From a virus (lineage: Duplodnaviria; Caudoviricetes): DNA of 64,000 nucleotides. The position numbers and the translations under genes were made by a program. The notes below the pieces were generated by a model. It was given only the letters and a program-made list of their open reading frames with translations, made no database searches and was not told the origin of the DNA. Of the stretch, positions 19,819 through 58,515 are shown piece by piece (position 1 is the stretch's first letter; every line of letters starts with the position of its first letter). The stretch is taken from IMG/VR virus record IMGVR_UViG_3300008259_002461, one strand, 5' to 3'.

Positions 19819-20701
19819 AGTAGCGGAACAGGACATTATTTTCCTTAGTTATGACGAACCTAATGCTGAAAAAAATTATGCTGACCTATGTGCAAAAGTT
19901 CCTTGGGCAAAAAGAGTTCATGGAGTTAAGGGCAGCGACGCCGCACACAAAGCATGTGCCGCACTAAGCGAAACAGAATACTTTGTTACTGTAGATGCTG
20001 ATAATATAATTGATCCAAAATTTCTTGACATTGAAGTAGACTTAGCAGAATTAGGTCTCACTACTGAGCATGTGTTTAGTTGGTGCGGAAAAGTTCACGT
20101 CAACGGCCTTATGTATGGCAATGGTGGTTTAAAAATGTGGACACGTAAATTTGTTAATAATATGCGTACACACGAAAATTCAGCAGTTGACGACGAAAAG
20201 GGAAAAGTAGAATTTTGTTTTGACGAAAAGTATTATCAGTTCAACGACAGTTATTCAGAAAGTTTTACTAATGCAACACCTTTTCAAGCCTGGCGAGCAG
20301 GATTCCGCGAAGGTGTTAAAATGAGCCTCAACCAAGGCACTAAAACTACTGATATAAAAAAGGTGTGGTGGCAAAATTATCAACGATTACTTATATGGTG
20401 CAATATTGGTGTAGACGTTGATAACGGCATTTGGAGTACAATAGGTGCTCGAGAAGGTTGTTACATGACTAATTGTACTGACTGGGATTATGCACAGGTG
20501 CGCGACTTTGAATATTTAACTGAGTATTGGAAAGAAAAGGGATACGGTCCTACAACAGATACTTCTGATTATTTTAATTGGTTAGGTACTGAACTTAAAC
20601 ACAAGTGCGGTTTAGAAGTTTCCAATATTGATAGTGACGGTTCAAAATTTTTCAAGACGGTGTATCAAAACACGCCAAGAATAATTAAAAGGGCAAAATG
20701 A
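19808..20701 (+). CDS. Glycosyltransferase-like protein, GT-A (paralogue of 29603)
   Basis: DIIFLSYDEP..., FVTVDADN (DxD), AWRAGFREGVK. Confidence 0.55.
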   Translation: MKIKVAEQDIIFLSYDEPNAEKNYADLCAKVPWAKRVHGVKGSDAAHKACAALSETEYFVTVDADNIIDPKFLDIEVDLAELGLTTEHVFSWCGKVHVNGLMYGNGGLKMWTRKFVNNMRTHENSAVDDEKGKVEFCFDEKYYQFNDSYSESFTNATPFQAWRAGFREGVKMSLNQGTKTTDIKKVWWQNYQRLLIWCNIGVDVDNGIWSTIGAREGCYMTNCTDWDYAQVRDFEYLTEYWKEKGYGPTTDTSDYFNWLGTELKHKCGLEVSNIDSDGSKFFKTVYQNTPRIIKRAK

Positions 20702-22080
20702 GCAACGAGCAAAAAATACAAATACTCAAAGATAAACGAGATAAAATTAACTCAGTAAGTTGTAGTTTTTGCACAGCTAAATGGTTACAAACAACTTTAT
20801 ATCTGCAAAACGGTTACAATCACAGTTGCCATCATCCTGCTCCTCATAAGATTCCTCTCGAAGAAGTACTAGCAGATCCTGCGGCATTGCATAACAGTAA
20901 ATTTAAAAAAAGCCAACGTGAACTGATGCTCAAAGGCGAGCGACCTAGTGAGTGTGATTATTGTTGGAACATAGAAGATTTAAATAAAGATTATTTTAGC
21001 GATAGGCATTATAAAACATCGGATTACTGGGCATGGGATAAATTTGATCAAATTGCTAACAGCGACCCTAATGATAATGTTTATCCTAGTTATTTAGAAA
21101 TTAGTTTTTCCAATGCATGTAATTTTGCGTGTATTTACTGTAGTCCTGAAATTTCATCTAAATGGATGGAAGATATACAACAGAACGGGTCTTACCCAGT
21201 TAAGAATGGAGCTCATCATTTAGGCTGGTTAAAACAAGTGGGACGTTATCCGTATGCACATCACGATGAGAATCCGTATGTAGACGCTTTCTGGAAATGG
21301 TTTCCAGAAACGTTACCGCATTTAAAAGTGTTGCGTATTACAGGCGGTGAACCAACTATGAGTAAAGACTTATGGAAATTATTAGATTACTTAATTGAAA
21401 ACCCGCAGCCTGAATTAGAATTAGCTATTAACACTAACATGTGTGTGCCTGATGTATTAATTGAAAAATTAATTAATAAAATTAATAGCTTACGAGGTGT
21501 GATAAAGCGTTTAGATATTTACACTAGTCTTGAAAGCACTGGATCTCAGGCAGAATATGCAAGAGACGGATTAGACATCAGTGTATGGCAGCAGAATGTT
21601 TGTAAAGTATTAGATAATACGCAATCAACAGTGGCTATAATGACCACTGTTAACATATTAAGTTTACCTACCTTTGTAGATTTTATAGAACTAGTAATGC
21701 AGTTACGTAAAGATTACAATACAAACTTTGAACATAATCGAATTCCGCTCAGTATAAATTATCTAAGATGGCCACCACATTTGCAATGCACTCTTTTAGA
21801 TAAAGAAGAAAGACAGCAGTATGCAGATGATATCTATGTAGCTTGTGAAAAATGGCTGAAATATTATAGCTTAGAAAAGTATGCTCGAATCTATTTAGAA
21901 GAATGGGATCAAATACAAAGATTTTGTGATTACTTACGCACAGCAGAACCAGCAGTAGAACACAGACAGGACTTTGTAAGATACATACAAGAGTATAATT
22001 TTAGAAGAAACAAATCGTTTACTAAGATATTTCCTGAATTCAAAAACTTATTAAAGGAATGGGATGCCCAAGAAGCCTGA
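20698..22080 (+). CDS. Radical SAM enzyme with N-terminal twitch-like domain (#1)
   Basis: CNFACIYC, ITGGEP; N-terminal FCTAKW...SCHH...CDYC. Confidence 0.9.
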   Translation: MSNEQKIQILKDKRDKINSVSCSFCTAKWLQTTLYLQNGYNHSCHHPAPHKIPLEEVLADPAALHNSKFKKSQRELMLKGERPSECDYCWNIEDLNKDYFSDRHYKTSDYWAWDKFDQIANSDPNDNVYPSYLEISFSNACNFACIYCSPEISSKWMEDIQQNGSYPVKNGAHHLGWLKQVGRYPYAHHDENPYVDAFWKWFPETLPHLKVLRITGGEPTMSKDLWKLLDYLIENPQPELELAINTNMCVPDVLIEKLINKINSLRGVIKRLDIYTSLESTGSQAEYARDGLDISVWQQNVCKVLDNTQSTVAIMTTVNILSLPTFVDFIELVMQLRKDYNTNFEHNRIPLSINYLRWPPHLQCTLLDKEERQQYADDIYVACEKWLKYYSLEKYARIYLEEWDQIQRFCDYLRTAEPAVEHRQDFVRYIQEYNFRRNKSFTKIFPEFKNLLKEWDAQEA

Positions 22081-23512
22081 AGAAGATTTAAAGCAATATA
22101 GAGAACGTGTTCTAGACACTAAGAGCACCAGCTTCTGCGGAGCAAAATGGTATAATGCTACTACATGGCTAGGTAGTGGTACCACAGCAAGTTGCCATCA
22201 TCCTCCAGCACATAAAATTCCAATAGAGGAAATTAAACGTAATTACACTGCTATTCATAATACTGAACATAAAAAAGAAATGCGTCGAATGATGCAGTCT
22301 GGCGAACGCCCTCGCGAGTGTGAGTACTGTTGGAAAATGGAAGACATGGGCAAAGATGCTGTTAGTGATCGAACATTTAAAAGTATCATTTATACTGATG
22401 AAGAACTACAACAGGCGTTTGATGCAGACATAAACGAAAATACTAATTTAAAAACTTTTGAAATTGCATTTGATAGGGTATGTAATCTTGCCTGTTCATA
22501 TTGTAATGCTAGTTTCTCAACTACATGGGCAAAGGATATTAAAAACAACGGTCCTTATATTAATCTTGTAAGTGACGGCGCAGGCGCATTTCATCACGAT
22601 GGATCTTGGGCACAGCCTTACAAAGACGATGAAGATAATCCCTATGTACAAGCATTTTGGAAATGGTGGGATAACGGACTATCAGAAAGTCTACAAGAGT
22701 TACGAATCACAGGCGGCGAACCTCTAATGAGTGGTAACACATGGAAATTATTTGATTGGTTTGAAGCGCAAAACAGTGATATGAGATTTGCTATTAACAG
22801 TAACTTAATTGCAAAGTCTGATATTATAGATAAGTTAATTGCTAAATCAAAAAATATTAAACACTTTGATTTGTACACAAGTTGCGAAGCAGTAGGCGAT
22901 CAAGCAGAATACATACGTGATGGTCTAGATTATCAACTATGGAAAACAAATCTAAAAAGAATTCTTACAGAAGCAAACTATAAAGGTGTACACATAATGA
23001 TGACTATTAATAGTTTATCTTTGTTTAGTATTACTGAATTTCTTGACGAAATGTACCAGCTAAAAGAAATGACACAAAGTAGAACTCCTACTGTTAGTTT
23101 AAATCTGTTAAGATTTCCTAGTTTTCAAAGTCCGTTGGCACTACCTAATCATATTAAAGATCATTGCCATAAAAAGCTGTCAACATGGTATGCGCAAAAT
23201 AAAGACCTACCAGGTTGGCACGAATTTGAACGTGCAAGTATTGAAAGATTAATTGATTATCTTGTTACAGTAGATGCACCTCATCGCAGAACAAGTAATC
23301 CTATTACACTGTGGAGAGACTTTAAAACTTTTTATCAGCAGTACGATCAGCGCAGATCAAAATCCATATATGTATTTCCTAAAATTTTAACAGATTGGAT
23401 TGATACTATACCTGATACAGACATAGCAATAAAAGAGTTAGCAGACAAAGAAGGCTGGGTGTTAACACCTGACTCAAGGAACATTGATGATCCTATTGCG
23501 ACCTACAATTAA
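22064..23512 (+). CDS. Radical SAM enzyme with N-terminal twitch-like domain (#2)
   Basis: CNLACSYC, ITGGEP; N-terminal FCGAKW...SCHH...CEYC; close paralogue of #1. Confidence 0.9.
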   Translation: MPKKPEEDLKQYRERVLDTKSTSFCGAKWYNATTWLGSGTTASCHHPPAHKIPIEEIKRNYTAIHNTEHKKEMRRMMQSGERPRECEYCWKMEDMGKDAVSDRTFKSIIYTDEELQQAFDADINENTNLKTFEIAFDRVCNLACSYCNASFSTTWAKDIKNNGPYINLVSDGAGAFHHDGSWAQPYKDDEDNPYVQAFWKWWDNGLSESLQELRITGGEPLMSGNTWKLFDWFEAQNSDMRFAINSNLIAKSDIIDKLIAKSKNIKHFDLYTSCEAVGDQAEYIRDGLDYQLWKTNLKRILTEANYKGVHIMMTINSLSLFSITEFLDEMYQLKEMTQSRTPTVSLNLLRFPSFQSPLALPNHIKDHCHKKLSTWYAQNKDLPGWHEFERASIERLIDYLVTVDAPHRRTSNPITLWRDFKTFYQQYDQRRSKSIYVFPKILTDWIDTIPDTDIAIKELADKEGWVLTPDSRNIDDPIATYN

Positions 23513-24779
23513 TTTATATTACGATAATATTGTTAACGGAATACCTGTTCCTAACGGCATAACACGATATAAAATTAATAAACAGTACGATATTCCAGTG
23601 ATGTCTAGTTTAGAATACAGTGATCAAGTCCTTAAAACTACGTATTTTTATAATGTAATGAAGGCAAACGAAGTCACAGTTAATTTGTTTACTAAAAGAG
23701 ATATGGCGTCAAATTTATTTTATCCATTGGAGCTTTCAAAAACAGCAATACGGAATCGTCTTATTGATATTATTCCGGAAAAGACATTAACTCGTATTAA
23801 AAAACGAAAAATGAAATTATTATTACTTTATCAACAATGGATAGGTGATTATAACTTTATGCAAAATCTTAAAGAAAGAATTGATGTATTAATTCGAAAC
23901 GGAGTTCCTACTGATCAAATTTATTTAATAACCGGTGATATTAATTGTTCCTATCAGGAATTATTTGACAAGGTTAAAGTATTTGGTATTGATTGGTGGC
24001 AAATTGCTTATCAACTAACTTGTAAATCTAAGTATCAAAATATTGATTATCATTGGGTCACATTTTTACTAGATGATGAAGTGCGTGAAAGTTTTGATAT
24101 CAATAATTGGAATAATCCCAGTTTACTATTTACAGCATTAACTGGTGAATCGTCAATGCATTCACTGGCTACTATTACTGAACTAGAATCTAGAGAATTA
24201 TTAGATAAAGGTTGCTATGAATTTAATGTTAAGAAAAACAAAAATCTAAATTTAGATAGTAAAATATTTACTAATGAGTCATTGTTAAATAACAAACAGT
24301 CAAAAAAAGATATAATTAATAATTTATTATCATCTGAGACAACTATCGCAAATATATCGGAGTCATTAGAAGACAGTCTATTTGCAATTGTAGCAGAGCC
24401 GTTCACACCTATGATGGATAAAACGTATCTGTCAGAAACAAATGCACTATGGGTATCGCCAAATATATGGAACGCTATTGCTCAAGGTTATCCTTTTATG
24501 GTAGTAGGAAGTTTATCTACTATGCGTTATCTTAATAACGAAGGATATTTTAGTTATGTAGATCTGTTTAATGAAACATATGATAGTGTTAGTGATTTAA
24601 AAATTAAATTAAATTTAATAATGACTGAAGTTGACAGATTATCTAAATTGTCTAAAGAAGAAATTAATGATCGTATAATTTTAACAAAACCATTTATCGA
24701 GGCCAATAAGAAAAAGTTTTATGATAAAAAACACACTTGGAAATTTTACGACCTTTTCAAAGAAATGCAATATGAATAA
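23484..24779 (+). CDS. Putative glycosyltransferase-like protein (GT10/GT-B-like C-terminus)
   Basis: SLFAIVAEP...YPFMVVG...YLNNEGYFSY.DLFNETYD, related to 54234 and 56406 but lacking the ITEK motif. Confidence 0.4.
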   Translation: MMILLRPTINLYYDNIVNGIPVPNGITRYKINKQYDIPVMSSLEYSDQVLKTTYFYNVMKANEVTVNLFTKRDMASNLFYPLELSKTAIRNRLIDIIPEKTLTRIKKRKMKLLLLYQQWIGDYNFMQNLKERIDVLIRNGVPTDQIYLITGDINCSYQELFDKVKVFGIDWWQIAYQLTCKSKYQNIDYHWVTFLLDDEVRESFDINNWNNPSLLFTALTGESSMHSLATITELESRELLDKGCYEFNVKKNKNLNLDSKIFTNESLLNNKQSKKDIINNLLSSETTIANISESLEDSLFAIVAEPFTPMMDKTYLSETNALWVSPNIWNAIAQGYPFMVVGSLSTMRYLNNEGYFSYVDLFNETYDSVSDLKIKLNLIMTEVDRLSKLSKEEINDRIILTKPFIEANKKKFYDKKHTWKFYDLFKEMQYE

Positions 24780-26031
24780 AGATTTTAATAATTTTTGTGT
24801 AGCACCCTGGATGCACTTGCACGTCATCAACGACGGTAGAGCTTTTGCATGTTGTCAAACCCCATTAAAAAACGAAAATAGTTTTGGAAATGTAAAAACT
24901 CAAAAACTTATAGAAATTGTTAATAGTGATCAAGCTAAAGTAATGAGGAAAAATATGCTTGAAGGCAAGCCTCTGCCTACTGCTTGTGAAAGATGTACTT
25001 CTAAAGAAGCTGTTGGACTTAATAGTATGCGAACAGGCTTTAATGATAGATGGTATGCAGAAATGCAACCGTTAATTGAACAAACAGATATAGACGGTGC
25101 CATTCCTTCATTGCAATTAAAATACTGGGATTTTAGATTTAGTAACTATTGTAATCTAGCTTGCACAACATGTTCACCACTGTTTAGTACACAGTGGGCA
25201 TCTGATTGGATTAAACTACATCCTGGATACGACAAATATTCTGAAACAAGATTAATTGATTTAGAAAAAGCAGATTTATTTTGGGACGACATTGCACAAA
25301 ATTTAGATACAATGAAGCAGATACATTTTGCAGGTGGCGAACCACTAATGATGCCTGAACATTGGAAAATTTTAAAACTACTTGATGAACGTAAAAAATA
25401 TGACATTGAATTAAGATACAGTACCAATGGGACCACGTTAGGTAGAGATAAAGACAATGTATTAGATTATTGGAAAAAATTTAAACATGTACATTTAAGT
25501 TTGAGCATCGATGGCGAAGGTGATGCATTTGAATATATCAGATATAAAGGTAACTGGAAATCTACATTTGAAAATTTAAAACGTATACGAGAAAGCGGAG
25601 TAGTTGATTATTGGTTTCATCCTACAGTGAGTATATTAAATATATTTAGATTAACAGAATTGCATGAAGTTTTACATAAAGCAGATCTTATGCCTTTAAA
25701 ATCAATACACAAGCACATGGGCTTCAACATTGAAAATTATTGGGTTGATAGATTTCACCTGAATCCTTTGTTTACTCCTGATTATTATAGTATAACAGTT
25801 CTTCCTGCCCATTTAAAAGATCAAGCCGCTGAAAAAATAACAAAGTATGGCAAGAAGCTTGAGGCTGACACAGCAATACCTTTTAGCGGTTGGCAAAATA
25901 TTATTGATTTTATGTATAGTGAAGATCGCAGCATACTATTTGAAAAGTTTAAATGGAAATCGCAACAGATTGATACTATTCGAAACAATGATGTTTTTGC
26001 ATTTAATCCGGAGCTTATCAATGTTAAATAA
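24772..26031 (+). CDS. Radical SAM enzyme with N-terminal twitch domain (#3)
   Basis: Start refined to ATG 24772; FCVAPW...ACC...CERC, CNLACTTC, FAGGEP. Confidence 0.9.
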   Translation: MNKDFNNFCVAPWMHLHVINDGRAFACCQTPLKNENSFGNVKTQKLIEIVNSDQAKVMRKNMLEGKPLPTACERCTSKEAVGLNSMRTGFNDRWYAEMQPLIEQTDIDGAIPSLQLKYWDFRFSNYCNLACTTCSPLFSTQWASDWIKLHPGYDKYSETRLIDLEKADLFWDDIAQNLDTMKQIHFAGGEPLMMPEHWKILKLLDERKKYDIELRYSTNGTTLGRDKDNVLDYWKKFKHVHLSLSIDGEGDAFEYIRYKGNWKSTFENLKRIRESGVVDYWFHPTVSILNIFRLTELHEVLHKADLMPLKSIHKHMGFNIENYWVDRFHLNPLFTPDYYSITVLPAHLKDQAAEKITKYGKKLEADTAIPFSGWQNIIDFMYSEDRSILFEKFKWKSQQIDTIRNNDVFAFNPELINVK

Positions 26032-26872
26032 AATAAAAAAATATATAAGAGGTTTAACTCTTGAAGAGTATATAAAATATGTAAAAACATCATCAAGTCA
26101 TGTTAATAGTATTGACGACCTTGCACAATTTGGTATTAAAAAATCAGTATGGTCTAAAGATGACTATGAGCGCGGCTATACAACTGTACTAGGTATGAAT
26201 TCAGCAGAGGAAAAAATAGTAAAACCTGGAGATTGGGAGTACGTTATCAATAGATACAATTTTAGAGAAATATGGGACTTTAATTCTCCTAGACCTAAAA
26301 TTGGATTTTTTGGTTGTAGTTTTACATTTGGTGAAGGTATAGAATATAAAGATACATTTGTTAGTATGGTTTCAAAGCAGTTTGACCTTAATTGTTTTAA
26401 TTTAGCTATAGGTGGATCTTCTTTACAAAGGGTGGCAAAAACGTTTAGTGCTGCCTCTAAAGTAATAGATCTTGATTATGCTGTGTTTACCTTGCCGCAA
26501 TGGCATAGACAAATGTATCTTGACGATCAAGGTAAAATTGTTAATCTTATACCCCAATGGCCGCATCAACAGTATGAAGAATTAAGTAATCAGCTTACTG
26601 CTTTAGACGAGGAATATTATATAGTACAAGCAGTATCTTATGTAAACTGGATACATGATTTAGCAGAACATAAAAATATAAAAATAATTTTATGTTCTTG
26701 GGATTATCCACTAAACGATTTATGTGAGGTTATGTACCCTAATGAAACAATAAAACCTTTTCCTAATATTGATGATAAATGCGCTAGAGATAAAATGCAT
26801 CCTGGTATACGTTCTCAACATGCACATGCAGAGCAAATTAAAAGAGCAATATATGATAGAGCTTGGTTTTAG
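26021..26872 (+). CDS. SGNH/GDSL-like hydrolase or acyltransferase
   Basis: Start refined to ATG 26021; GFFGCSFTFG (block I), NLAIGGSS, DKMHPG (DxxH). Confidence 0.65.
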   Translation: MLNKIKKYIRGLTLEEYIKYVKTSSSHVNSIDDLAQFGIKKSVWSKDDYERGYTTVLGMNSAEEKIVKPGDWEYVINRYNFREIWDFNSPRPKIGFFGCSFTFGEGIEYKDTFVSMVSKQFDLNCFNLAIGGSSLQRVAKTFSAASKVIDLDYAVFTLPQWHRQMYLDDQGKIVNLIPQWPHQQYEELSNQLTALDEEYYIVQAVSYVNWIHDLAEHKNIKIILCSWDYPLNDLCEVMYPNETIKPFPNIDDKCARDKMHPGIRSQHAHAEQIKRAIYDRAWF

Positions 26873-27815: not shown

Positions 27816-28617
27816 TTTTATTAATGGTATATGGGAAAATGCTGGAAATGAATTTTGGAATATTAAGAAACCTGACGAAATATTAGGTATAGCTCGTGTG
27901 TCTAAACACATGTTAAGTTATTGGCCCAGAATTAAAAACTACGAAAACTACTTAATAAATTATTTTCAATACGGTATTAATAAAGAAGTAGAACCTACTA
28001 TATGGTTATCTCACACAGATCCTGTGTATAACAGATATCAAGAAGAAATTGAAGGATATGTAAAAGCAGTTTGGCTTACACATGGATTTTTTACTGAAGG
28101 CGGTCTAAGAAAGCCAGTTGGGGTTCATTGGAGTCCTGTGTCTCTTGACTGGAGAATACATCCGGGTGGAACAAGACAAGCAATTATAAAATATTTTGCA
28201 CCCGATGAAATAGATTGTCTTTGTTTTAATACAGGCGGTCAACCTATGCAATTTATAAAAGAATTTAACACAGTAGAAGAAATTGCTGAATATACTAATA
28301 GCTCTAAAGTTTTTTTAGTAGTTACAGATGAACGCGGTCATTATATACCGCATGTTCATTTAGATGGATTTACTATTAAACCTGCAATGGTCGAGACACA
28401 TGCACAGATGAAAAAGTTTTTTAGAAAAACTAAGATTGAAGCTAATTTTGATTTAGCTGAGTTAGGATATGATGAAACAAAAATATTAAAAACTGAAAAA
28501 AAACGCATAAAAATAACTATTGAAGATCAGTCTATGGATACAAAGGTAAAAGCAATGCTACTATTACCGTCGTTTAATAATTTTGAAGGACATGGAGTTA
28601 AAATTGAGCGTACCTAA
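27808..28617 (+). CDS. Hypothetical protein, possible ParB/Srx-like N-terminal motif
   Basis: KPVGVHW...WRIHPGGTRQAII resembles the ParB/Srx GxxR motif; weak. Confidence 0.55.
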   Translation: MANFINGIWENAGNEFWNIKKPDEILGIARVSKHMLSYWPRIKNYENYLINYFQYGINKEVEPTIWLSHTDPVYNRYQEEIEGYVKAVWLTHGFFTEGGLRKPVGVHWSPVSLDWRIHPGGTRQAIIKYFAPDEIDCLCFNTGGQPMQFIKEFNTVEEIAEYTNSSKVFLVVTDERGHYIPHVHLDGFTIKPAMVETHAQMKKFFRKTKIEANFDLAELGYDETKILKTEKKRIKITIEDQSMDTKVKAMLLLPSFNNFEGHGVKIERT

Positions 28618-29596: not shown

Positions 29597-29602
29597 AATA
29601 AT

Positions 29603-50409: not shown

Positions 50410-51629
50410 TTCCAGTCTAGATTATAATGCCAAGTTGGTTTTTTTAAAGTTTCCATATTAGTAATTTTAAAATCTTTACTAATTCCCAATGTCTTTAAAT
50501 TTTCTACAAATCCAACTGCGGCCCTAATATTAAAATTAATTGTACATTCAGGAACTTTTTCTTTTAATGAATTAATAATTTCATTTTCTTTGTGTACCCT
50601 ATAGTACAACGGTGACAAACATGCTGTACCTTCGTAGCAAAAAATATTTGATAAATTAATTAACGTAGTTGAATTATGCTCTGCGTTGATGTAATCTATA
50701 AGATTATTTTCTAATAGTAAATCGGCTTTTACAAATATATACTCAATATTATTCTTTTGTTGAATTTTGTTCTTCCAGTAGTTTAAAGCATTATCATTGT
50801 AATCATAAACAACGATTCGACCCTCGTCAATTAAATCAGTATAAAGTAGACCACTAGCTGGAATAATTAATTGTGTAAATTTTTTATTAACATTGCTATG
50901 TTCTTCGGTATTTTCTGTATGAATAAATTCAGATGCTGCATACTTTTCTCGAAAGTATACCCAATTAAGATTTTCTAAAAAGTCTTTTTTAGATTCTGGA
51001 TAAAGATGTTTTTTGTTATGTCTAATATCGTTATTAAATATTTTAACAGGCAGATTATATGTAAGTGCTAAACTTAATATATTCCATCCGTGACATTTAT
51101 GATCATATGATTTAGTTTGATATCCAGTTTTAACCCAAATAGGTGTATAATCATCGTGTATATTTTCTACACTTCTTTCTGGAATCACTTGAGTATGTTT
51201 AGTACCAAGCTCTAATTGACCAATTGCTGGACAACCTAATTTACGATATATTTCTAAATTTATTAGATAACACTGATTGTGCAGTTCATAATATGCGGTA
51301 CCTCTATCTAGAATATGTCCATAGATAAAAAAATCGTCTTTGATAAGATCTTCTAATGAATTAAAAAACTCACTTCCGTTAATAAATTCTGTCCCAGTAC
51401 TAAAGACAAGAGCATAGGTATAATCTAAATTTGCTACATGTTGTAATACAGTATCCTCATTTAAAGACTGATATACATCATAATTTTTATTTAGTACATT
51501 TGATAATGTATAATCAGACTGATTTTTTATAATTTCCTTACAAAAATTATCTTGTATCTGATTAGTATTATCTATAAAACAAAATGCAATCTTATTAGAA
51601 GAATTATAATTGTACTCAACTACATTCAT
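50406..51629 (-). CDS. Hypothetical protein
   Basis: 407 aa, ATGA-coupled to the upstream radical SAM gene; no confident motif. Confidence 0.7.
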   Translation of the reverse strand: MNVVEYNYNSSNKIAFCFIDNTNQIQDNFCKEIIKNQSDYTLSNVLNKNYDVYQSLNEDTVLQHVANLDYTYALVFSTGTEFINGSEFFNSLEDLIKDDFFIYGHILDRGTAYYELHNQCYLINLEIYRKLGCPAIGQLELGTKHTQVIPERSVENIHDDYTPIWVKTGYQTKSYDHKCHGWNILSLALTYNLPVKIFNNDIRHNKKHLYPESKKDFLENLNWVYFREKYAASEFIHTENTEEHSNVNKKFTQLIIPASGLLYTDLIDEGRIVVYDYNDNALNYWKNKIQQKNNIEYIFVKADLLLENNLIDYINAEHNSTTLINLSNIFCYEGTACLSPLYYRVHKENEIINSLKEKVPECTINFNIRAAVGFVENLKTLGISKDFKITNMETLKKPTWHYNLDWN

Positions 51630-52627
51630 TTTTTATAAAATTTAATAGGCAAAACATTTTCTTCGGTCAATATTACTTCATTTTGAGATGACGGACACAT
51701 TGAACATTCACTAATTGGTTTATACTTAGAAATAGAAAAATTTTCTACTTCTTCGTCAGTACAATTAGTTAAGTCAAGAGGTTTGTATGCTAAAAATTTC
51801 TGCCATTCTTCGTCGTCGACTGCATTATGTCTTTCTAAAAAGTTTTTTAAAGTTCCTAATGCTGCACACTTATAAAGTTTTTTATTATACATAAATGTAC
51901 AGTAACAACTTGGACAGTTACCATAATAAGCCTTTTCAATATCCGTTGAGTTAAACGGTTTTGGTTTATTATCTTTCATGTAAAAATGTTTTAGATGGGA
52001 ATCTTGATCAATTGAAAGTACACCGTACTGGCCGTTCCACCAAAAGTCATCATCAGGCGGAATTGGTGATTTATTTTCTATAGCACAATAAGCATTATGT
52101 CTATAGTCCTTAACATCAATCCAATAATTCCTCCAACCATCAGTAGAGTCGTACATCATCTTTGACCAAAAATTCTCACTAGGAAGTTTTTGAATATCAA
52201 GTTTTTCTGTTAACACTTCAACGGCAGCTTTTATTCTATTTGATCGAGTCTTATCTTCAAATTGAATAAAGTGATCACTAACTAATATCATAACTTTATA
52301 CTTAACAATAATATTAGATAAGAAGTCTATGTTCTTATCGATAAGTTCGCCATTAGTTGGAATCCATACTGGTGTAGTTTGATCAAAGCTTCTAATAAAT
52401 TCTAGGAGTGATTCAATTCTGTCTTTGTATAACAGTGGTTCACCGCCTAGTAAACTATAGTGTTCAATATGAAACTTTTCTTTAGTTAACAGAATTCCTT
52501 CTTTGATTGTTTCAAGGTCAGGATCATGTTCTCCTTTTCTAATCAAGTCACTACGTGTATCACACTGTTGGCAGGCAATTTGACATTTATTGCCGTAAAA
52601 AATATCAAAAACTTTAAGATTGGGCAT
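51626..52627 (-). CDS. Radical SAM enzyme (#13, paralogue of 53404)
   Basis: Start refined to ATG 52627 (AGGA SD); CQIACQQC, LGGEP, PTNG, YKC...CSMCP. Confidence 0.88.
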   Translation of the reverse strand: MPNLKVFDIFYGNKCQIACQQCDTRSDLIRKGEHDPDLETIKEGILLTKEKFHIEHYSLLGGEPLLYKDRIESLLEFIRSFDQTTPVWIPTNGELIDKNIDFLSNIIVKYKVMILVSDHFIQFEDKTRSNRIKAAVEVLTEKLDIQKLPSENFWSKMMYDSTDGWRNYWIDVKDYRHNAYCAIENKSPIPPDDDFWWNGQYGVLSIDQDSHLKHFYMKDNKPKPFNSTDIEKAYYGNCPSCYCTFMYNKKLYKCAALGTLKNFLERHNAVDDEEWQKFLAYKPLDLTNCTDEEVENFSISKYKPISECSMCPSSQNEVILTEENVLPIKFYKK

Positions 52628-53360
52628 TATATTCCTTTTTATAACTTCTAGCAACGAGTTTAGTAAACTCACTTGTTTTATTTTCTAATTTACCGTGCGC
52701 AATTAAATGTATCCTAGACGTGTTAGATAAATTTATTACGCTATGATAATTTCTAATATTTATGATAAATGCTTTTCCGGTTTTAAATGGAACACATCCG
52801 TAACCGTCCAAGCTCATATAACATTCTTCTGGATGTACTAATGCTATGTTTATGGGAACTCCAAATTTGAGAGCATCAAAGTTTTCTTCACCAGGTAATT
52901 TACCAGGGGCATCACTATGCGGGCTAATATGCCCTCCTGCTTCCAATTCCATAAATCTTATTCTTCTATAAGTATCGTACGGAAAGTTCTTCCAAAATTC
53001 TTTAATTACAGGTGTTTTGGATGCTACCGGGGTCCAATCATATGGTACTTGATCTTCATGGGTGTAACCATACGAAGTCCATGCACCGGTGCTAGCCGCG
53101 TTTATACCGTGTATACAGCAACTATTCCACCCATGACTATCGCTTTCTCTATGAGGAACTAAATGTACTTTTGAATCCTCAGCTTCTTTAATCCATTTAT
53201 CAACATCAAACTCAATATCAAGTTCTAACCAACCAAAATTACTTTTGTTCAATAACCAATCTGCTATTTCATAATCAGTTTTCGCCCATTCAGGCATTTT
53301 AGGTAAGTTAGATTTTATATTTTTGTTTTTGTGATAAAAATCCAACGCAGTGGTATTCAT
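52614..53360 (-). CDS. Aspartyl/asparaginyl beta-hydroxylase-like Fe(II)/2OG oxygenase
   Basis: IRFMELEAGGHISPHSD...YHSVINLSNTSRIHLI. Confidence 0.8.
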   Translation of the reverse strand: MNTTALDFYHKNKNIKSNLPKMPEWAKTDYEIADWLLNKSNFGWLELDIEFDVDKWIKEAEDSKVHLVPHRESDSHGWNSCCIHGINAASTGAWTSYGYTHEDQVPYDWTPVASKTPVIKEFWKNFPYDTYRRIRFMELEAGGHISPHSDAPGKLPGEENFDALKFGVPINIALVHPEECYMSLDGYGCVPFKTGKAFIINIRNYHSVINLSNTSRIHLIAHGKLENKTSEFTKLVARSYKKEYNAQS

Positions 53361-53387
53361 GTCATTAACCTAGTATTTTATATCTTG

Positions 53388-53399
53388 TATTTATAAATA
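53388..53399. promoter_or_regulatory. Palindromic bidirectional T4 late consensus TATTTATAAATA
   Basis: Perfect 12-bp palindrome giving TATAAATA on both strands, between divergent genes 53360(-) and 53404(+). Confidence 0.7.
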
Positions 53400-53403
53400 G
53401 TTT

Positions 53404-54237
53404 ATGAACACAAAAATAAAAATCCCACATCTTGAGTGGCATGTTGCTCATGCTTGTAATCTATCTTGTAAAGGTTGTTGCCATCTTTCTGATTATGGGC
53501 AAAAAGGAATAGTTAGTTATAATGAGATCAAAGACTGGTATTCAAAATGGAGTCATAGACTAGCACCAAAATCAATAGACATTTTAGGGGGAGAACCTTT
53601 ATTAAACAAAGATATCTGTAAAATTATTTCTTTAACAAGAGAAATGTGGGATGATCCGTATCTAGAACAATTACAATTAACAACTAACGGACTTTTAATT
53701 CACAAATTTCCAGATTTACCTAAAGTATTAAAAGATTCTAATTGTTCTATTTCAGTGTCTTGGCATAGTGAAGATCCAAGTTATAATAAATTGTTTGATA
53801 AATCTAAAAACATTTTAAATGAATGGGTAGAAAAATACGGAATCCAAGTTCGTATACTAGATTTTTATAATTATTGGACTCCATTTTATAAAGGTTACGG
53901 TAGCACTATGGAACCGTTTAACGAAGAAAACTTTGAAAAAAGTTGGGATAATTGTATAACGGGACAAGATTGTTTTCAGATATATAATGGCGATATTTAT
54001 AAATGCTCAAATTTAGCGTACTTGCCTATGACTAAACAAAAAATTAATCTTTCAGAGAATTGGGATTATTATCTAAGTTATGTTCCACTAAAGCCGGAAG
54101 CTTCGGACAATGAAATTACAGAGTTTTTTAATAAAGGTGCAGAAAAATTTTGTAGTATGTGTCCCAATTCAGTTGAAATGATTAAAAAACCAGATCCTTT
54201 AAAATTTCGTAAACAAATACTGATGAAGAAAATTTGA
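53404..54237 (+). CDS. Radical SAM enzyme (#14, paralogue of 51626)
   Basis: CNLSCKGC, LGGEP, TTNG, YKC...CSMCP. Confidence 0.9.
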   Translation: MNTKIKIPHLEWHVAHACNLSCKGCCHLSDYGQKGIVSYNEIKDWYSKWSHRLAPKSIDILGGEPLLNKDICKIISLTREMWDDPYLEQLQLTTNGLLIHKFPDLPKVLKDSNCSISVSWHSEDPSYNKLFDKSKNILNEWVEKYGIQVRILDFYNYWTPFYKGYGSTMEPFNEENFEKSWDNCITGQDCFQIYNGDIYKCSNLAYLPMTKQKINLSENWDYYLSYVPLKPEASDNEITEFFNKGAEKFCSMCPNSVEMIKKPDPLKFRKQILMKKI

Positions 54238-55442
54238 TTATGAAACAAGGAAGATTAATAAACTTTGAATTACTGTGGGATACTGACCTAAGCGTCAATG
54301 TTGTATTACCAAAACTACTTGAATTAGAATTTCAAGAAGCAGTAGCTGACGGAGTAACTACCATTTTTGGAATGTTTTTAATGGAGGGAATTTATCCGCA
54401 TGATTGTCATAATCAACAACTGTTTTTAGAAATTAAAAAAATAGCTGACAAATACAATTTAGAAGTTATTCTATTGTCAGGCCTTGGAGAAAGTTTTAAC
54501 AATCAGTATAGTATAGAAAATGGTAGTATTTTAAACAATCTTCCATTTGAGGTAATATACTCATCATATCCTTTAAGAGTATGTTACAACATCATTAATA
54601 ATATTCCTAGAAAATCAAAAACTATCAATAATAAGTTTTTATTCTTAGGTGGAATTCCTACTAGATTAAATAGAATTTATTTATTAAGTAAGTTGTATGA
54701 AAACAATCTTTTAATAAATGGTAAATGGTCATTTTTTATTCCGTTATCCCAAGAAGATAAAAATTATTGCAGAAATTTATTATCACATTATTCAGATGAA
54801 GAGTACGAAACTTTTTTAAAAAACTGTACTAGCTCAATAGATGAAAAATATCAAGAAATGGCTAACTTTTTTCAAGACTATGCACCGTACGAAGAAGGCG
54901 ATCTTGAAAAGTGGGGCGAAATAGTTCATACTGATTTTTGGAAAAATCCTATATACATAGATCCTGAAGTTTACGATGAAACTTCGTTAAGTATAATTTC
55001 TGAAGGTCCAAATTATTGGTCGCCTGATTATAAATTTATTACAGAAAAAACATGGCGGACAATAATTTATAAGCATCCTTTTATATTTGCAGGCCCGCCT
55101 GAACAGTTTAGATATATTAAACAAATGGGATTTGAAACATTTGAAAAATATATGCTTATTCAAAATTATGCACAGGTGGAAGATGAAAAAGAAAGAATTG
55201 AATTGATTGTTAAAAATGTAGAACATTTTTTAAAACACCAAACTTATCATCAAAAAGAAATACAACAAGATATTGAACATAATTTTAACTTATTCTTAAA
55301 ACTAGCCAATGATCAAAATTGTCTACTAACATCTTTAAAATCAAAATACAATATTCCTGATGCTGAGTTTTCAAAATTTTTTAGTACAACCGGCTATGAA
55401 AATTTGATTAGGCCCGTTGCCGACCTCAAAAAATTAGGCTAG
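54234..55442 (+). CDS. Putative glycosyltransferase (GT10/fucosyltransferase-like motif)
   Basis: SIISEG...FITEKTW...HPFIFAG...GFETF resembles the GT10 ENS...YITEK region; near-duplicate of 56406. Confidence 0.45.
   Translation: MIMKQGRLINFELLWDTDLSVNVVLPKLLELEFQEAVADGVTTIFGMFLMEGIYPHDCHNQQLFLEIKKIADKYNLEVILLSGLGESFNNQYSIENGSILNNLPFEVIYSSYPLRVCYNIINNIPRKSKTINNKFLFLGGIPTRLNRIYLLSKLYENNLLINGKWSFFIPLSQEDKNYCRNLLSHYSDEEYETFLKNCTSSIDEKYQEMANFFQDYAPYEEGDLEKWGEIVHTDFWKNPIYIDPEVYDETSLSIISEGPNYWSPDYKFITEKTWRTIIYKHPFIFAGPPEQFRYIKQMGFETFEKYMLIQNYAQVEDEKERIELIVKNVEHFLKHQTYHQKEIQQDIEHNFNLFLKLANDQNCLLTSLKSKYNIPDAEFSKFFSTTGYENLIRPVADLKKLG
54999..55120 (+). repeat. Degenerate direct duplication, copy 1 (copy 2 at +2160 bp)
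   Basis: Identical blocks TCTGAAGGTCCAAATT, ATTACAGAAAAAACATGGCG, CATCCTTTTATATTTGC and TTTAGATATATTAA recur colinearly at 57159-57280. Confidence 0.8.
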
Positions 55443-55482: not shown

Positions 55483-55510
55483 AGTTTATGACTATATCTG
55501 TTAGACTATC

Positions 55511-56425
55511 ATGAAAAATAATTACGATAAACGGCATCTTCCTTTTGGACATTCTACAGCTATACAAGACAAAGAAACATTATCTTTTATCAATAATTGT
55601 AGTATCTCAACACAAACATTAAACGATCAAACAATTAACGAACAATTCCTTAGCAAGTATGTAGAATGGATATTGACTACAACAAATAACAAAGTAACTG
55701 GTATTGATCAGTATCCATTCAAATGTTTTTCGCAAGGGACATCTGAAGCGTTTGAAAAATTTTATATGAATTATTCTCATAGAAGATTTCGATGTTTTAA
55801 AGGCGAGTATGTTTATCATAAATTAGCTTGGAGAGATGATAGATTTAATTGGAAATACTTAGAGGATGATGCGCTTGATGCCAATGACGTAGTAATAATT
55901 AGTCAACCTTTTTCTGATACAGGCGATCAGCATCCTTTACTTAATGATATTTTAGATCAATGTGACAAACTAAATATTCCTGTAGTACTTGATTGTTGCT
56001 ACTTTGGTATTTGTAGTAATATAAATTTTGATTTTACAAGACCTTGTATAAAAGAAATCATCTTTAGTTTATCTAAAACTTTTCCAGTAGCTCATATTAG
56101 AATAGGTATGCGTCTTTCAAGGATTGATAATGACGATTTGTTATTTGTGTATAACAAAAGTGGCTACACAAATAGATTAGCAGCAAGTATAGGACTTAAT
56201 CTTATTAATCATTTTGATTCTGACTACATAGTTAATAAGTATAAAAATAAACAAATTGAAATCTGTAAAAAATTAAATGTAACTCCTAGCAATACTGTGT
56301 TGTTTGGAATAGGCGGCTCTGAATGGCAGGAATACAATCGTGATAGAGCTACTAACAGATTAGGATTACATAATTTTTTACACATGGAAGATACAGAGTG
56401 CTTAGATGAATATGTCAAAATCTAA
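55511..56425 (+). CDS. PLP-dependent aminotransferase-like enzyme (class I/II fold)
   Basis: QGTSEAF, VVLDCCY, FSLSKTFPVAHIRIG matching the S.SK...RIG PLP-lysine motif. Confidence 0.8.
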   Translation: MKNNYDKRHLPFGHSTAIQDKETLSFINNCSISTQTLNDQTINEQFLSKYVEWILTTTNNKVTGIDQYPFKCFSQGTSEAFEKFYMNYSHRRFRCFKGEYVYHKLAWRDDRFNWKYLEDDALDANDVVIISQPFSDTGDQHPLLNDILDQCDKLNIPVVLDCCYFGICSNINFDFTRPCIKEIIFSLSKTFPVAHIRIGMRLSRIDNDDLLFVYNKSGYTNRLAASIGLNLINHFDSDYIVNKYKNKQIEICKKLNVTPSNTVLFGIGGSEWQEYNRDRATNRLGLHNFLHMEDTECLDEYVKI

Positions 56426-57593
56426 AATTATAAATTTTGAATGGATGTGTGATCACAATCATTACACCCATGAACAATTTGATAAAATTAAAACTGATTT
56501 AATTAAAAAAGACATTGATCAAGCCATAGATGAAAATGTTGATACTGTTGTAGGGCTTTATCTAATGGATGGGTTTTTACAACCTAAGTATAGATACAAA
56601 GAGTTTATTTTGCACCTAAACGAAATAAAAGATTATGCTTACAATGCTGGAATTAAAAAAATAATTCTAATAAGTGGCCATGGCGAAACATTAGATAATT
56701 GTCCCTTTGAATACCTGTTTTTAGATTTTAATCTTAGATTATTAATTAATAGCTATCCTGATCTAAATGTATTACCTAAATTCAATCCTGAAAATACAAA
56801 GTTTCTCTTTTTAACTGGCATGCCAAATAGACCTAATCGTATAGGTCTATTGAGCAAGTACTATGATAAAGATTTATTAGACACTGCTGAGTGGAGTTTT
56901 TTTGGCCCATGGACACCTATGGATCAATCTTGGTGTAGAGAATATCTTAAACATTATAGTGATGAACACTACAATACATTTTTAATTAATTGTGAAAGAT
57001 CTTTTGATAATAGATATGAAACGTGTAAGCCATTCTATGGATCGTATACTTCAACGGAAAATGCACCGCTATGGTATGATGTAGTTAATATTGACTGGGT
57101 TCAATTACCCAGTCATATTGATTCTAAAGTATATAGCGATACACTTTTTAGTGTTATATCTGAAGGTCCAAATTTTTGGTCTGAAGATTGGAGTTTCATT
57201 ACAGAAAAAACATGGCGAACTTTTTTACATCGTCATCCTTTTATATTTGCCGGGCACCCTGATCAATTTAGATATATTAAGAAACTTGGATTTAAAACAT
57301 TTGAAGAATATTTGTTAATCAAAGATTACGCCTATATTGAAGATGAAAATGAAAGACTAGATGCTGTAGTCAAAAATACAGAATACTTATTAAAAAATAT
57401 AAAAAATAATTTAGATGCTATAGAAAAAGACGTAGAATATAATTATCAAATGTATTTTAATCATGTAAACAATCAGGATAAAATTTTTAAATTCTTAAAG
57501 CACGATTTAAATGTTTCGTCAGATGATATCCAGCCATATGCTAATATCAAAGGTTATCCGTATCTCATTAGGAGAATACCTGATGGATTCTAA
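56406..57593 (+). CDS. Putative glycosyltransferase (GT10-like motif; paralogue of 54234)
   Basis: SVISEG...FITEKTW...HPFIFAG...GFKTF; KFLFLTGMPNRPNRI. Confidence 0.45.
   Translation: MNMSKSKIINFEWMCDHNHYTHEQFDKIKTDLIKKDIDQAIDENVDTVVGLYLMDGFLQPKYRYKEFILHLNEIKDYAYNAGIKKIILISGHGETLDNCPFEYLFLDFNLRLLINSYPDLNVLPKFNPENTKFLFLTGMPNRPNRIGLLSKYYDKDLLDTAEWSFFGPWTPMDQSWCREYLKHYSDEHYNTFLINCERSFDNRYETCKPFYGSYTSTENAPLWYDVVNIDWVQLPSHIDSKVYSDTLFSVISEGPNFWSEDWSFITEKTWRTFLHRHPFIFAGHPDQFRYIKKLGFKTFEEYLLIKDYAYIEDENERLDAVVKNTEYLLKNIKNNLDAIEKDVEYNYQMYFNHVNNQDKIFKFLKHDLNVSSDDIQPYANIKGYPYLIRRIPDGF
57159..57280 (+). repeat. Degenerate direct duplication, copy 2
   Basis: Colinear with 54999-55120. Confidence 0.8.
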
Positions 57594-58515
57594 ATGTGCA
57601 GCTTTCTGGAAACATACTAATGTTCGTAGCGATAACAAAATATTTCCCTGTTGTAGATTTAAGAATCCTGTAGATAATTTCAACGGCGATTTAATTCATA
57701 TATTAGAGTCCAGTGCATATAAAGAACTTAGAAAAAAAAGTTTAAACGGTGAATTTATCCAAGGTTGCGAAAAATGCTATTACGAAGATGCCAACGGTAG
57801 GCAAAGTCTTCGACAACGATTAAACAAAGAATATACTACTGACACAGTTGAATTAGAATTTTTAGAAATAGGGTTTGACAATATATGTAATTTAACCTGT
57901 GACGGATGCTGGAGTGATTTTAGTTCCGAGTGGAGTAAAAAACTTAACCCTACTGCAAACAAGATTACTCACTATCGTTCAGTTGATGAGATTGTTAAAG
58001 TTCCGTCTAGTATTAAAAAAATACTCTTTTTAGGCGGTGAACCTTTAATGACCAACCGGCATGAAAAGTTTTTAAAACTAATTGAAAATCCAGCAGCAGT
58101 TGAAATAATTTACAACACTAACGGAATGTTTTTGTTAAAAGAAGAATTTATTAATTTTTTACATCAGTTTAAATCGGTAAAATTTACGTTAAGTATTGAT
58201 GGGTACAAAGATCTAAATAACAAAGTTAGATCTGGAAGTAAGTGGGAAGATATTTTAAGTTTTATAGAACAGATATCTAAATCTAACTTTGATCTAGAAG
58301 TGAATACAGTGTTACATTTAAATAACTGGCACGGAATAAAGGAGCTTGAATCCTTTATACAACAATTAGGAGTACCGTGGATAGTAAATGTTTTAACATA
58401 TCCTACACATTTAGATATTTCTAATTTTGAACAAAAGGAACAAATTATTAATTTGATTAGCGAAACAAACATTCCAAATAAAACTTATGTCATTAACCAT
58501 CTATTACATAATTAA
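57583..58515 (+). CDS. Radical SAM enzyme with N-terminal twitch domain (#15)
   Basis: Start refined to ATG 57583 (AGGAG SD); KCAAFW...PCC...CEKC, CNLTCDGC, LGGEP, NTNG. Confidence 0.9.
   Translation: MDSKCAAFWKHTNVRSDNKIFPCCRFKNPVDNFNGDLIHILESSAYKELRKKSLNGEFIQGCEKCYYEDANGRQSLRQRLNKEYTTDTVELEFLEIGFDNICNLTCDGCWSDFSSEWSKKLNPTANKITHYRSVDEIVKVPSSIKKILFLGGEPLMTNRHEKFLKLIENPAAVEIIYNTNGMFLLKEEFINFLHQFKSVKFTLSIDGYKDLNNKVRSGSKWEDILSFIEQISKSNFDLEVNTVLHLNNWHGIKELESFIQQLGVPWIVNVLTYPTHLDISNFEQKEQIINLISETNIPNKTYVINHLLHN

Follow-up and report, generated by a model that had tools for sequence, protein, structure and literature searches.

A mosaic tail-fibre island with fifteen radical-SAM genes in a large freshwater phage, tentatively read as a line for tailoring an unusual sugar or glycan

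The window analyzed here is a whole stretch of 64,000 nt from the IMG/VR virus record IMGVR_UViG_3300008259_002461, a contig of 185,762 bp whose completeness is put at 52% by CheckV. The source is an uncultured, abundant, T4-like freshwater phage, and the window is an enzyme-filled stretch of its hypervariable tail-fibre ('host recognition') island. In this fibre region of a large phage, between positions 20698 and 58515, lies a conserved, selected and mosaic island of 15 intact radical S-adenosylmethionine (SAM) genes, as had been claimed by the original prediction of fifteen radical-SAM enzymes in 38 kb, which was made from the letters of the window. With a confidence that falls a little short of even, the island is read as a line of several steps in which an unusual sugar or glycan is built and edited by radical chemistry. 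Radical-SAM enzymes carry out some of the hardest reactions in biology, and none of the fifteen encoded in these 38 kb can be assigned to a known reaction. Since related contigs measure 282-384 kb, the complete genome probably comprises about 350 kb. The lake origin was indicated by near-identical DNA in runs of around 15 studies labelled lake water or freshwater, and no near-identical DNA was matched in the isolate phage collection.

Open reading frames (ORFs) were called mechanically and scanned for the CxxxCxxC motif, which was present in exactly 15 of the 63 ORFs of the window, all located within 20698-58515. When the sequence of each protein was shuffled (2000 times), the motif turned up in a mean of 0.12 ORFs (maximum 2). 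All 15 proteins were matched by the Pfam model Radical_SAM (PF04055), 12 of them above its gathering score of 29.5 bits. The remaining three stay just below this score (31237, 29.2 bits; 34166, 21.4 bits; 22064, 20.5 bits; genes are named by their lower coordinate in the window) and are backed otherwise, 22064 by 302 bits on the NCBIfam model NF033640, and 31237 and 34166 by SPASM domains above the cut-off. The residue preceding the third cysteine is Y in five proteins, M in four, S in two, G in two, T in one and Q in one, which is the same set that had been predicted. A GGE/GD-type motif had been claimed for every protein. Downstream of the cluster, the SAM-binding motif was found as GGEP in 12 of the 15 and as SGD in 34166, so that the claim holds for 13 proteins, whereas a simple pattern search did not match it in 28583 or 31237. 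Each protein contains 5-10 further cysteines. Together with two genes outside the window, the contig carries 17 radical-SAM genes. One of these two, a B12-binding radical-SAM gene (HpnJ/PhpK/BchE-like), is truncated by the contig start (first 1242 nt). The other is QueE-like and is located near the GTP cyclohydrolase I gene FolE, 5.4-8.3 kb past the window end; its best matches are QueE models, all below cut-off.

The 15 proteins were divided into four groups by all-against-all BLAST and NCBIfam, in agreement with the at least four that had been postulated. Group A consists of seven members of the N_Twi_rSAM family (NF033640, 'twitch domain-containing radical SAM protein', curated cut-off 170 bits), which score 212-415 bits, and one divergent relative. 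Encoded on the plus strand are 20698 (20698-22080; NF033640 324.7 bits, PF04055 32 bits; motifs CNFACIYC and GGEP), its adjoining paralogue 22064 (22064-23512; NF033640 301.8 bits; 39% identity, BLAST E 1.8e-92), 24721 (24721-26031; NF033640 379.3 bits, PF13186 42.4 bits, PF04055 52.9 bits), 32815 (32815-34209; NF033640 414.9 bits), 49234 (49234-50409; NF033640 232.7 bits) and 57511 (57511-58515; NF033640 212.4 bits), and on the minus strand 37906 (37906-39153; NF033640 319.8 bits). Six of the seven are covered almost end to end by the model; 57511 has a short C-terminus, matches profile positions 2-325 of 398 and lacks the last 70 or so. The divergent relative 34166 (34166-35263, minus strand) reaches only 54 bits on NF033640 and is not a member by the 170-bit rule. 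Its domain order is that of N_Twi, with an N-terminal SPASM-like domain (PF13186, 42.5 bits, residues 33-83) ahead of the core (PF04055, residues 129-274), and it carries SGD instead of GGE.

Group B contains the small radical-SAM protein 30258 with C-terminal cysteines (30258-31244, plus strand; PF04055 48 bits) as well as 35242 (35242-36333, minus strand; 47.2 bits) and 37026 (37026-37913, minus strand; 50.3 bits). In group C, the SPASM domain is in the usual C-terminal position. It comprises 28583 (28583-29587, plus strand; PF04055 42.4 bits at residues 19-153, PF13186 43 bits at residues 236-295), for which no NCBIfam cut-off was reached, and 31237 (31237-32223, plus strand; PF13186 22.3 bits). 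Group D is formed by 51626 (51626-52672, minus strand; PF04055 33.9 bits, Fer4_12 31.7 bits) and 53404 (53404-54237, plus strand; PF04055 39.6 bits), which were paired by BLAST and both have a C-terminal Cys cluster. In none of the 15 was the cut-off of a housekeeping equivalog in NCBIfam reached, the best scores of any protein being 44 bits for MoaA (cut-off 284), 28 for NrdG (131), 23 for QueE (206-260) and 54 for viperin (180). Over the models of these equivalogs as a whole, the top scores were put at 20-65 bits, with cut-offs of 126-325. The top NCBIfam matches of 37026, viperin and STM4011 at 53-54 bits, are far below their cut-offs. The earlier statement that no housekeeping function can be assigned is thereby borne out, and no clustering with characterized housekeeping families was observed.

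The N_Twi proteins have an unusual domain order, in which a Cys-rich twitch/SPASM-like domain (residues 20-105) precedes the SAM-cleaving core (residues 140-375). PF13186 (residues 7-99) is located ahead of PF04055 (residues 116-306) in 24721, 32815, 37906 and 57511; in 24721, the SPASM/twitch match spans residues 26-93 and is followed by the core at 140-296. The solved SPASM/twitch enzymes (anSME, CteB, SkfB, BtrN-type, BlsE, MoaA) share with N_Twi the partial TIM-barrel SAM core, and with the window proteins an auxiliary iron-sulfur (Fe-S) domain with a Cys-rich motif matching PF13186, but this domain is C-terminal to the core in all solved matches and N-terminal to it in N_Twi. The four N-terminal cysteines, CxxxCxxC and GGEP of NF033640 are kept in all seven members. 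The twitch cysteines C21, C40, C96 and C99 (32815 numbering) are invariant or nearly so across 82 sequences, and in 20698 and 22064 SCHH replaces CC in the twitch motif.

An AlphaFold model of 32815 (predicted local distance difference test, pLDDT, 92.8) contains an all-helical C-terminal domain (residues 377-460) after the core. Compared with solved structures, it resembles CteB, anSME, SkfB and BlsE at Z 12-13 with around 220 residues aligned (within 140-425). The sugar/nucleoside enzymes BlsE and DesII are among the nearest solved folds, with Z equal to that of the peptide maturases. Only the generic radical-SAM core was recovered with this model by Foldseek (PDB, Swiss-Prot) and VIA-align, and no family-level relative. 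A sequence search of the PDB with 32815 gave no match, Swiss-Prot gave no closer entry, and the nearest AlphaFold DB clusters are all uncharacterized. NF033640 is thus far known by name, and neither a solved structure nor a Swiss-Prot entry was found for it. When a profile was made from the window paralogues, 7,067 clusters (50% identity) matched it at E <= 1e-30, among which a search of the 50% representatives with cluster look-up returned unnamed metagenomic proteins only, and one phrase search of the literature found no paper on the function of NF033640. A family of at least 7,000 clusters, so far encountered mainly in large phages and predatory Bdellovibrionota, is without a studied member, and a single solved N_Twi reaction would allow thousands of genes to be annotated. 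Among the top profile matches are many proteins of 800-1400 amino acids in which two or three entire N_Twi units follow one another; they may be natural fusions or gene calls reading through adjacent genes. The window proteins 54234, 50406 and 23484 (about 400 amino acids) were considered as degenerate N_Twi proteins and rejected (hhalign probability 0.2%).

For the analysis of selection, 80 related IMG/VR loci were used for comparison, and five longer relatives were read whole or partly. The ratio of nonsynonymous to synonymous substitution rates (dN/dS) requires an orthologue of at least 60% identity and could be determined for eight radical-SAM genes (orthologues 60-99%), namely 30258 (0.147), 31237 (0.131), 32815 (0.056), 34166 (0.053), 35242 (0.031), 37026 (0.117), 37906 (0.074) and 49234 (0.054). 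Among the relatives used, no qualifying orthologue was present for 20698, 22064, 24721, 28583, 51626, 53404 and 57511. The median values of 0.03-0.15 resemble those of other island genes; the eight genes are therefore under purifying selection and not decaying, and the pseudogene-like dN/dS near 1 that had been considered in advance was not observed. Internal stops were found in orthologues of these eight genes only in three copies of 32815, which is the most conserved gene of the island, with orthologues in 77 of 81 related loci. 30258 is conserved in 61 related loci, and 49234 has an orthologue of 94% identity in one relative (G001). The relatives are rich in radical-SAM genes as well: one contig of 282 kb contains 19, a stretch of 82 kb contains 15, and fragments measuring 46-67 kb contain 9-12.

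The backbone from 18326 to 61280 is syntenic in one relative, with the block 19808-29603 replaced or relocated. Within one genome pair, orthologue identity ranges from 25% to 96% between neighbouring genes. Relative to G161, 35242 is 96% identical, 32815 94%, 34166 66% and 32213 46%, and such jumps between adjacent genes (30258-36333) point to gene-sized recombination tracts. By these comparisons, the island evolves as a mosaic, cassette by cassette.

In a maximum-likelihood tree, the seven N_Twi copies of this one phage were distributed over at least five deep subfamilies. Three subfamilies are common to phages and Bdellovibrionota chromosomes (supports 100/100, 99/83 and 95/92); the clade of 20698 takes in Bdellovibrionales chromosomal genes (100/100), and 37906 is sister to a Bdellovibrionia gene (95/92). 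Deep subfamilies and shared clades indicate that the N_Twi paralogues are ancient and that subfamilies were exchanged between phages and Bdellovibrionota. A scan of species-representative genomes (one, pattern-based) placed most N_Twi matches in genomes and metagenome-assembled genomes (MAGs) of Bdellovibrionota. The family was present in 31 of 151 sampled Bdellovibrionota genomes and in 0 of 14 control genomes, and five genomes searched whole (four Bdellovibrionota, one labelled Parcubacteria) contain 7-20 N_Twi genes each. Like the phage island, the Bdellovibrionota arrays combine N_Twi, 31237-like, 30258-like, 55511-like, AspH-like and 59701-like genes. Unlike it, they are chromosomal, beside rpoD/dnaG or RNase PH, and no recognizable fibre gene adjoins them, though several neighbours are without family match. 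In one Bdellovibrionota genome, the tandem expansion of a single subfamily has led to 11 near-copies, a situation not seen in the phage. The 1.9-Mb genome of this lineage-specific expansion, a Bdellovibrionales from which 11 members were sampled in the tree, carries 16 N_Twi genes at 792852-803016 and 1068646-1092743.

Radical-SAM-rich T4-like phages are already known from reports of 2010, 2017 and 2020 and are functionally unsolved; the island described here adds a striking case. Timms et al. (2010, PMC2853527) described 11-12 radical-SAM genes in the Campylobacter phages CP220 and CPt10, where a putative glycine amidinotransferase is part of each cluster, and Nishimura et al. (2017, PMC5332604) a T4-like marine environmental genome with 12. 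For pelagimyophages, Zaragoza-Solas et al. (2020, PMC7029224) described a host recognition cluster that is hypervariable and includes a core Asp/Asn hydroxylase besides glycosyltransferases and radical-SAM cassettes; their freshwater pelagimyophage genomes were reported to be without radical-SAM genes. No function was assigned to the radical-SAM genes in any of the three studies. The present numbers, 15 within 38 kb or 17 if the whole half-genome is counted, are above the published counts that were found.

CP220 and CPt10 are, like the phage of the window, T4-like myoviruses in which a radical-SAM cluster is accompanied by a homologous amidinotransferase. The window enzyme 59701 is 35% identical to the CP220 'glycine amidinotransferase' (E 8e-46), and its homologues in cultured phages are almost exclusively from Campylobacter phages. 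In CP220, five radical-SAM genes surround the gene. Baseplate and PAAR genes are located upstream of this cluster, which is followed by two genes for nucleotide-diphospho-sugar transferases and one for a PAP2 phosphatase. The window differs from CP220/CPt10 by more radical-SAM genes in less DNA, by additional AspH- and prolyl-4-hydroxylase (P4H)-type oxygenases, and by host and habitat. Moreover, the N_Twi member 24721 found no match in Campylobacter phages by tblastn, and the group B genes match there over their first 90 residues only. Among isolate phages, tblastn of 24721 retrieved only Ralstonia phage RsoM2USA, two Vibrio phages and one marine virus. The host recognition clusters of pelagimyophages and cyanomyophages are large, non-syntenic islands in the structural module, after a giant baseplate-associated protein, and contain fibres, glycosyltransferases, radical-SAM cassettes and Asp/Asn beta-hydroxylases that diverge gradually by cassette gain and loss. 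The same mosaic pattern is found in the phage of the window, with fibre genes on both sides. Pelagimyophage-type genomes are marine and measure about 150-185 kb, whereas the present phage is from freshwater, has an estimated 350 kb and carries 15 radical-SAM genes in one island. The reason why T4-like phages hoard radical-SAM genes has been in question since 2010; an answer could reveal a new glycan or protein modification in host recognition, and the homologous module in cultivable Campylobacter phages makes it experimentally approachable.

The proposed function is derived from the genes that accompany the radical-SAM genes. A nicotinamide adenine dinucleotide (NAD)-dependent nucleoside diphosphate (NDP)-sugar epimerase/dehydratase (18326-19243, plus strand; PF01370 128 bits, PF16363 117 bits; PHROG nucleotide-sugar epimerase; dN/dS 0.108) is encoded 1.4 kb upstream of the first radical-SAM gene. 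In a close relative, uridine diphosphate (UDP)-glucose dehydrogenase and epimerase genes directly precede the orthologous radical-SAM genes, and a cytidylyltransferase gene lies nearby. An L-arginine-dependent, StrB1-like amidinotransferase is encoded at 59701-60792 (plus strand). Its closest solved relative is StrB1 of streptomycin biosynthesis, an inosamine-phosphate amidinotransferase that acts on an aminocyclitol phosphate (1bwd; phmmer E 1.1e-93, query 14-362 on 4-346), followed by AGAT (E 4.6e-59); full-length similarity places 59701 in the amidinotransferase family (AGAT, StrB1, SxtG). 55511 (55511-56425, plus strand) is a pyridoxal phosphate (PLP)-aminotransferase-like protein with a weak Aminotran_1_2 match. 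In its family alignment an invariant Asp and an SLSK motif are retained, and a profile search of the PDB gave non-significant aminotransferase matches only (E 0.035-0.9). Homologues occur in 10 cellular loci, and the family accompanies radical-SAM arrays in phages and in Bdellovibrionota. Furthermore, a SAM-dependent methyltransferase (46205-47176, minus strand; PF03602, PF01596 and PF06325 above cut-offs) is present, and N-termini resembling short-chain dehydrogenases/reductases (SDR) and SGNH/GDSL proteins were found among the island proteins.

Pfam detected no glycosyltransferase, but two putative ones of the GT-B fold are encoded on the plus strand near the right end of the island. For the AlphaFold model of 54234 (54234-55442; pLDDT 80), the 50 best of 48,161 chains in VIA-align are all GT-B glycosyltransferases (Z 9.2-11.8), with the match covering residues 1-375 and 247-290 residues aligned. 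The Foldseek E-values are weak (1e-3 to 1e-2), and the matches include GtfA-, EarP- and HMW1C-type protein glycosyltransferases; the T4 enzymes AGT and BGT, at Z 11.2-11.4, belong to the folds that tie for the best match. No Pfam or NCBIfam match was found for 54234, an Atlas lead to GT10 was weak (score 0.78), and Atlas otherwise gave only virus-only unnamed clusters for 54234 and 50406. For the paralogue 56406 (56406-57593; 39% identity, BLAST E 9e-101), the GT-B fold is taken over from the 54234 model. A further family, represented by 19808 (19808-20701, plus strand) and its paralogue at 29603-30286, has an invariant D-x-D (D63, D65) and is possibly GT-A-like, judged by this motif; its 18 members gave no Pfam match and no profile match in the PDB.

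QueC-like PP-loop ATPase 39736 (39736-40419, minus strand; dN/dS 0.098) shows an SGGADS motif and a C-terminal CGNCFWC in its translation and a weak PF06508 match, and is conserved together with the adjoining 37906 and 37026; no second QueC is encoded on the contig. Asp/Asn beta-hydroxylase-type (AspH/LpxO) 2-oxoglutarate (2OG) oxygenases are encoded at 52614-53360 (minus strand; PF05118 33.9 bits) and 59148-59723 (PF05118 27.1 bits), with weaker paralogues (41805, 42373, 48768 and 60741) detected by BLAST, and AspH-type homologues are also located inside the Bdellovibrionota arrays, as are homologues of 31237. In 42938 (42938-43969, plus strand; PF00313, PF13640), a cold-shock domain is fused to a P4H-type 2OG oxygenase with E 3e-21 to the Bacillus anthracis P4H 3itq. 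The pairing of a nucleic-acid-binding domain with a P4H-type oxygenase is unusual, and no substrate for it is obvious in this setting.

Because enzymes for sugar activation, amination, amidination, methylation and transfer accompany the radical-SAM genes, and because the island leaves no room for precursor-peptide genes, the sugar or glycan reading is favoured. Sugar enzymes were seen together with radical-SAM genes in the phage of the window and its relatives, in CP220, and in one bacterial array at least. In this Bdellovibrionales chromosome, eight radical-SAM genes form an array that borders on genes for AsnB, GT2, UDP-glucose dehydrogenase and PMT_2. According to this proposal, the radical-SAM enzymes would act jointly with the co-resident sugar and tailoring genes, i.e., with the epimerase/dehydratase, the PLP-like enzyme, the StrB1-like amidinotransferase, the methyltransferase, the SDR-like and SGNH-like proteins, the QueC-like amidating enzyme, the two GT-B-like proteins and the 2OG oxygenases. 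The position from which hydrogen is abstracted would differ between the radical-SAM paralogues, with epimerization, dehydration or deoxygenation, oxidation, or the formation of C-C or C-methyl bonds as possible outcomes. Amino and guanidino groups would be installed by the aminotransferase-like enzyme and the amidinotransferase, and the GT-B glycosyltransferase-like proteins would attach the product to an acceptor, the foremost candidates being the fibres of the phage itself and the envelope of the host. Gaps between genes inside the island do not exceed 68 bp, so precursor genes of peptides that are made by ribosomes and modified after translation (RiPPs) have no room in them, short ORFs overlapping genes not having been searched systematically.

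Two classes of promoters were detected. A perfect sigma70-type promoter (TTGACA, 17 nt, TATAAT; 12/12 matches) at 16247-16275 opens the enzyme block, and a second one (12/12) is located at 29568-29596. Both are on the plus strand, which is the coding strand, just upstream of gene starts, and by a rough estimate 0.05 such sites are expected by chance in 20 kb. The T4-type late consensus NATAAATA was found 12-38 nt ahead of the start codons of the fibre genes, 47222, 52614, 53404 and 55511, eight motifs in the window, from a total of only 15 ATAAATA sites. In the divergent intergenic region of 43 bp at 53361-53403, TATAAATA overlaps on both strands as T4-type late-promoter consensus and serves operons running in opposite directions; the copy belonging to 53404 is located 12 nt before the ATG. 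CATAAATA is located 38 nt upstream of the start of the fibre-like gene at 61280-62425. This pattern suggests an early (sigma70, left) and a late (right) expression class. In one metatranscriptome run, three contigs of 151 nt cover 32656-33218, in the region of 32815, a weak signal that could be DNA carry-over; a 9-kb query for near-identical sequence had no RNA dataset among the matches listed.

Several points weigh against the sugar or glycan line. Peptides or proteins are the substrates of most characterized SPASM/twitch enzymes, and CteB, anSME and SkfB, which 32815 matches best in structure, are modifiers of this kind. P4H- and AspH-type oxygenases typically hydroxylate proteins. The glycosyltransferase assignment comes from a predicted fold, and with the T4 DNA glucosyltransferases tied at the top, the acceptor could be DNA. 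Sigma70 promoters on the left and late promoters on the right suggest two expression classes instead of one pathway, around 15 island ORFs are without annotation, and several Bdellovibrionota arrays are located among housekeeping genes with no recognizable sugar gene nearby. Substrate, product and acceptor of the line are inferred.

Some of these points would be accommodated if the radical-SAM enzymes, the P4H- and AspH-type hydroxylases and three flavin halogenases modified the neighbouring tail fibres, an explanation we regard as unlikely, yet as the main rival. Cross-links, epimerized or hydroxylated residues and glycosylation by the GT-B proteins are possible changes, with hardened fibres or diversified receptor binding as the result. 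The island is bracketed by fibre genes, namely by three paralogues with a common N-terminus on the left flank (8691-14185, plus strand; PHROG tail-fibre and tail-collar families) and by the fibre-like protein with an Mtd_N domain on the right (61280-62425, minus strand; PF18454 37.5 bits). Left of the fibre genes, ORF 1 (more than 2683 amino acids) has a PHROG 'virion structural protein' match and an FG-GAP repeat. The late-promoter motifs precede fibre genes and right-hand enzyme operons alike, and the secondary NCBIfam matches and nearest solved folds are mostly peptide or protein maturases (CteB, SkfB, anSME, SuiB). The similarity of 42938 to a bacterial collagen prolyl hydroxylase (3e-21), the AspH-type oxygenases, the GtfA-, EarP- and HMW1C-type protein glycosyltransferases among the GT-B matches and the presence of three tryptophan halogenase genes on the contig fit fibre modification as well. 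However, collagen-like G-X-Y repeats, the candidate P4H substrates, are absent across the contig, and no leader or tag common to the window proteins was found. The fibre proteins contain 0-3 cysteines, so thioether chemistry is unlikely, and the cross-linking of proteins would not be expected to involve an amidinotransferase, an NDP-sugar enzyme or a PLP enzyme. In Bdellovibrionota, moreover, the toolkit occurs with no recognizable fibre gene alongside, several neighbours there having no family match.

An acceptor other than protein is assumed if the island extends the 7-deazaguanine or another base pathway, with the GT-B proteins glycosylating DNA and the radical-SAM enzymes editing the attached group. 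The QueC-like enzyme inside the island, conserved with 37906 and 37026 beside it, the FolE and QueE-like genes 5-8 kb past the window, the tied AGT and BGT folds of 54234 and the nucleic-acid-binding cold-shock domain of 42938 are in line with such a hypermodification, and the left block would, judging by its two perfect sigma70 promoters, be expressed early. In Campylobacter phages with a related module, guanines are fully modified. Fifteen radical-SAM genes are nevertheless hard to motivate in this way, as no DNA hypermodification is known to require radical-SAM steps beyond one or two, and the island is part of the structural/fibre region, away from replication or nucleotide genes. Bdellovibrionota chromosomes with 7-20 copies give no indication of modified DNA, and the Z gap between DNA and non-DNA glycosyltransferases is below 1, i.e., they tie. 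We therefore consider DNA hypermodification improbable. Least of all, and very improbable, the island would make a diffusible small molecule during infection (an aminocyclitol, a guanidino sugar or an aminoglycoside-like compound), e.g., for suppressing competitors or manipulating the host: the StrB1-like, twitch radical-SAM, aminotransferase-like, NDP-sugar and glycosyltransferase genes do resemble aminoglycoside/nucleoside-antibiotic sets, BtrN and BlsE are twitch enzymes and some Campylobacter phage records label a homologue BtrN, but no 2-deoxy-scyllo-inosose synthase, exporter or resistance gene was found among the ORFs scanned, the proteins all appear soluble with no transporter seen, and the extreme gene-by-gene mosaicism of close relatives better suits surface or recognition diversification than a fixed metabolite.

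An extension of the favoured sugar or glycan line, which we put forward as a long shot, would regard the N_Twi-centred arrays as a 'predator toolkit' common to large phages and predatory Bdellovibrionota. It would write a hypervariable exotic glycan, e.g., with a guanidino-, amino- or C-branched sugar, onto prey-recognition structures or the prey envelope, and the exchange of cassettes between phages and predators would diversify the host or prey range. The permuted twitch would then mark a new mechanistic class of carbohydrate-editing radical-SAM enzymes.

Outside the window, the three tryptophan halogenase genes (PF04820, 312-337 bits) are located at 27493-36286 of the contig, about 65-74 kb before the window start. 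To our knowledge, phages rarely encode flavin halogenases. The heavy Fe-S demand that had been deduced from the density of radical-SAM genes is a reasonable supposition. Models of Fe-S scaffold proteins (PF01521, PF01592) and of flavodoxin (PF00258) found no match within this half-genome, which is not evidence of absence. In a MAG labelled Candidatus Parcubacteria, a 1.27-Mb contig contains 11 CxxxCxxC ORFs in 21 kb, seven of them N_Twi; this casts doubt on the taxonomic label, unless the array is also present beyond Bdellovibrionota. MAGs with the labels Thermoplasmata, Crocinitomicaceae, Rickettsiales and Gammaproteobacteria also include contigs, 3.5-108 kb long, that bear phage-like radical-SAM islands with 41-66% identity to 32815 and up to 14 radical-SAM ORFs in 21 kb, and these look like phage contigs that were binned into cellular MAGs.

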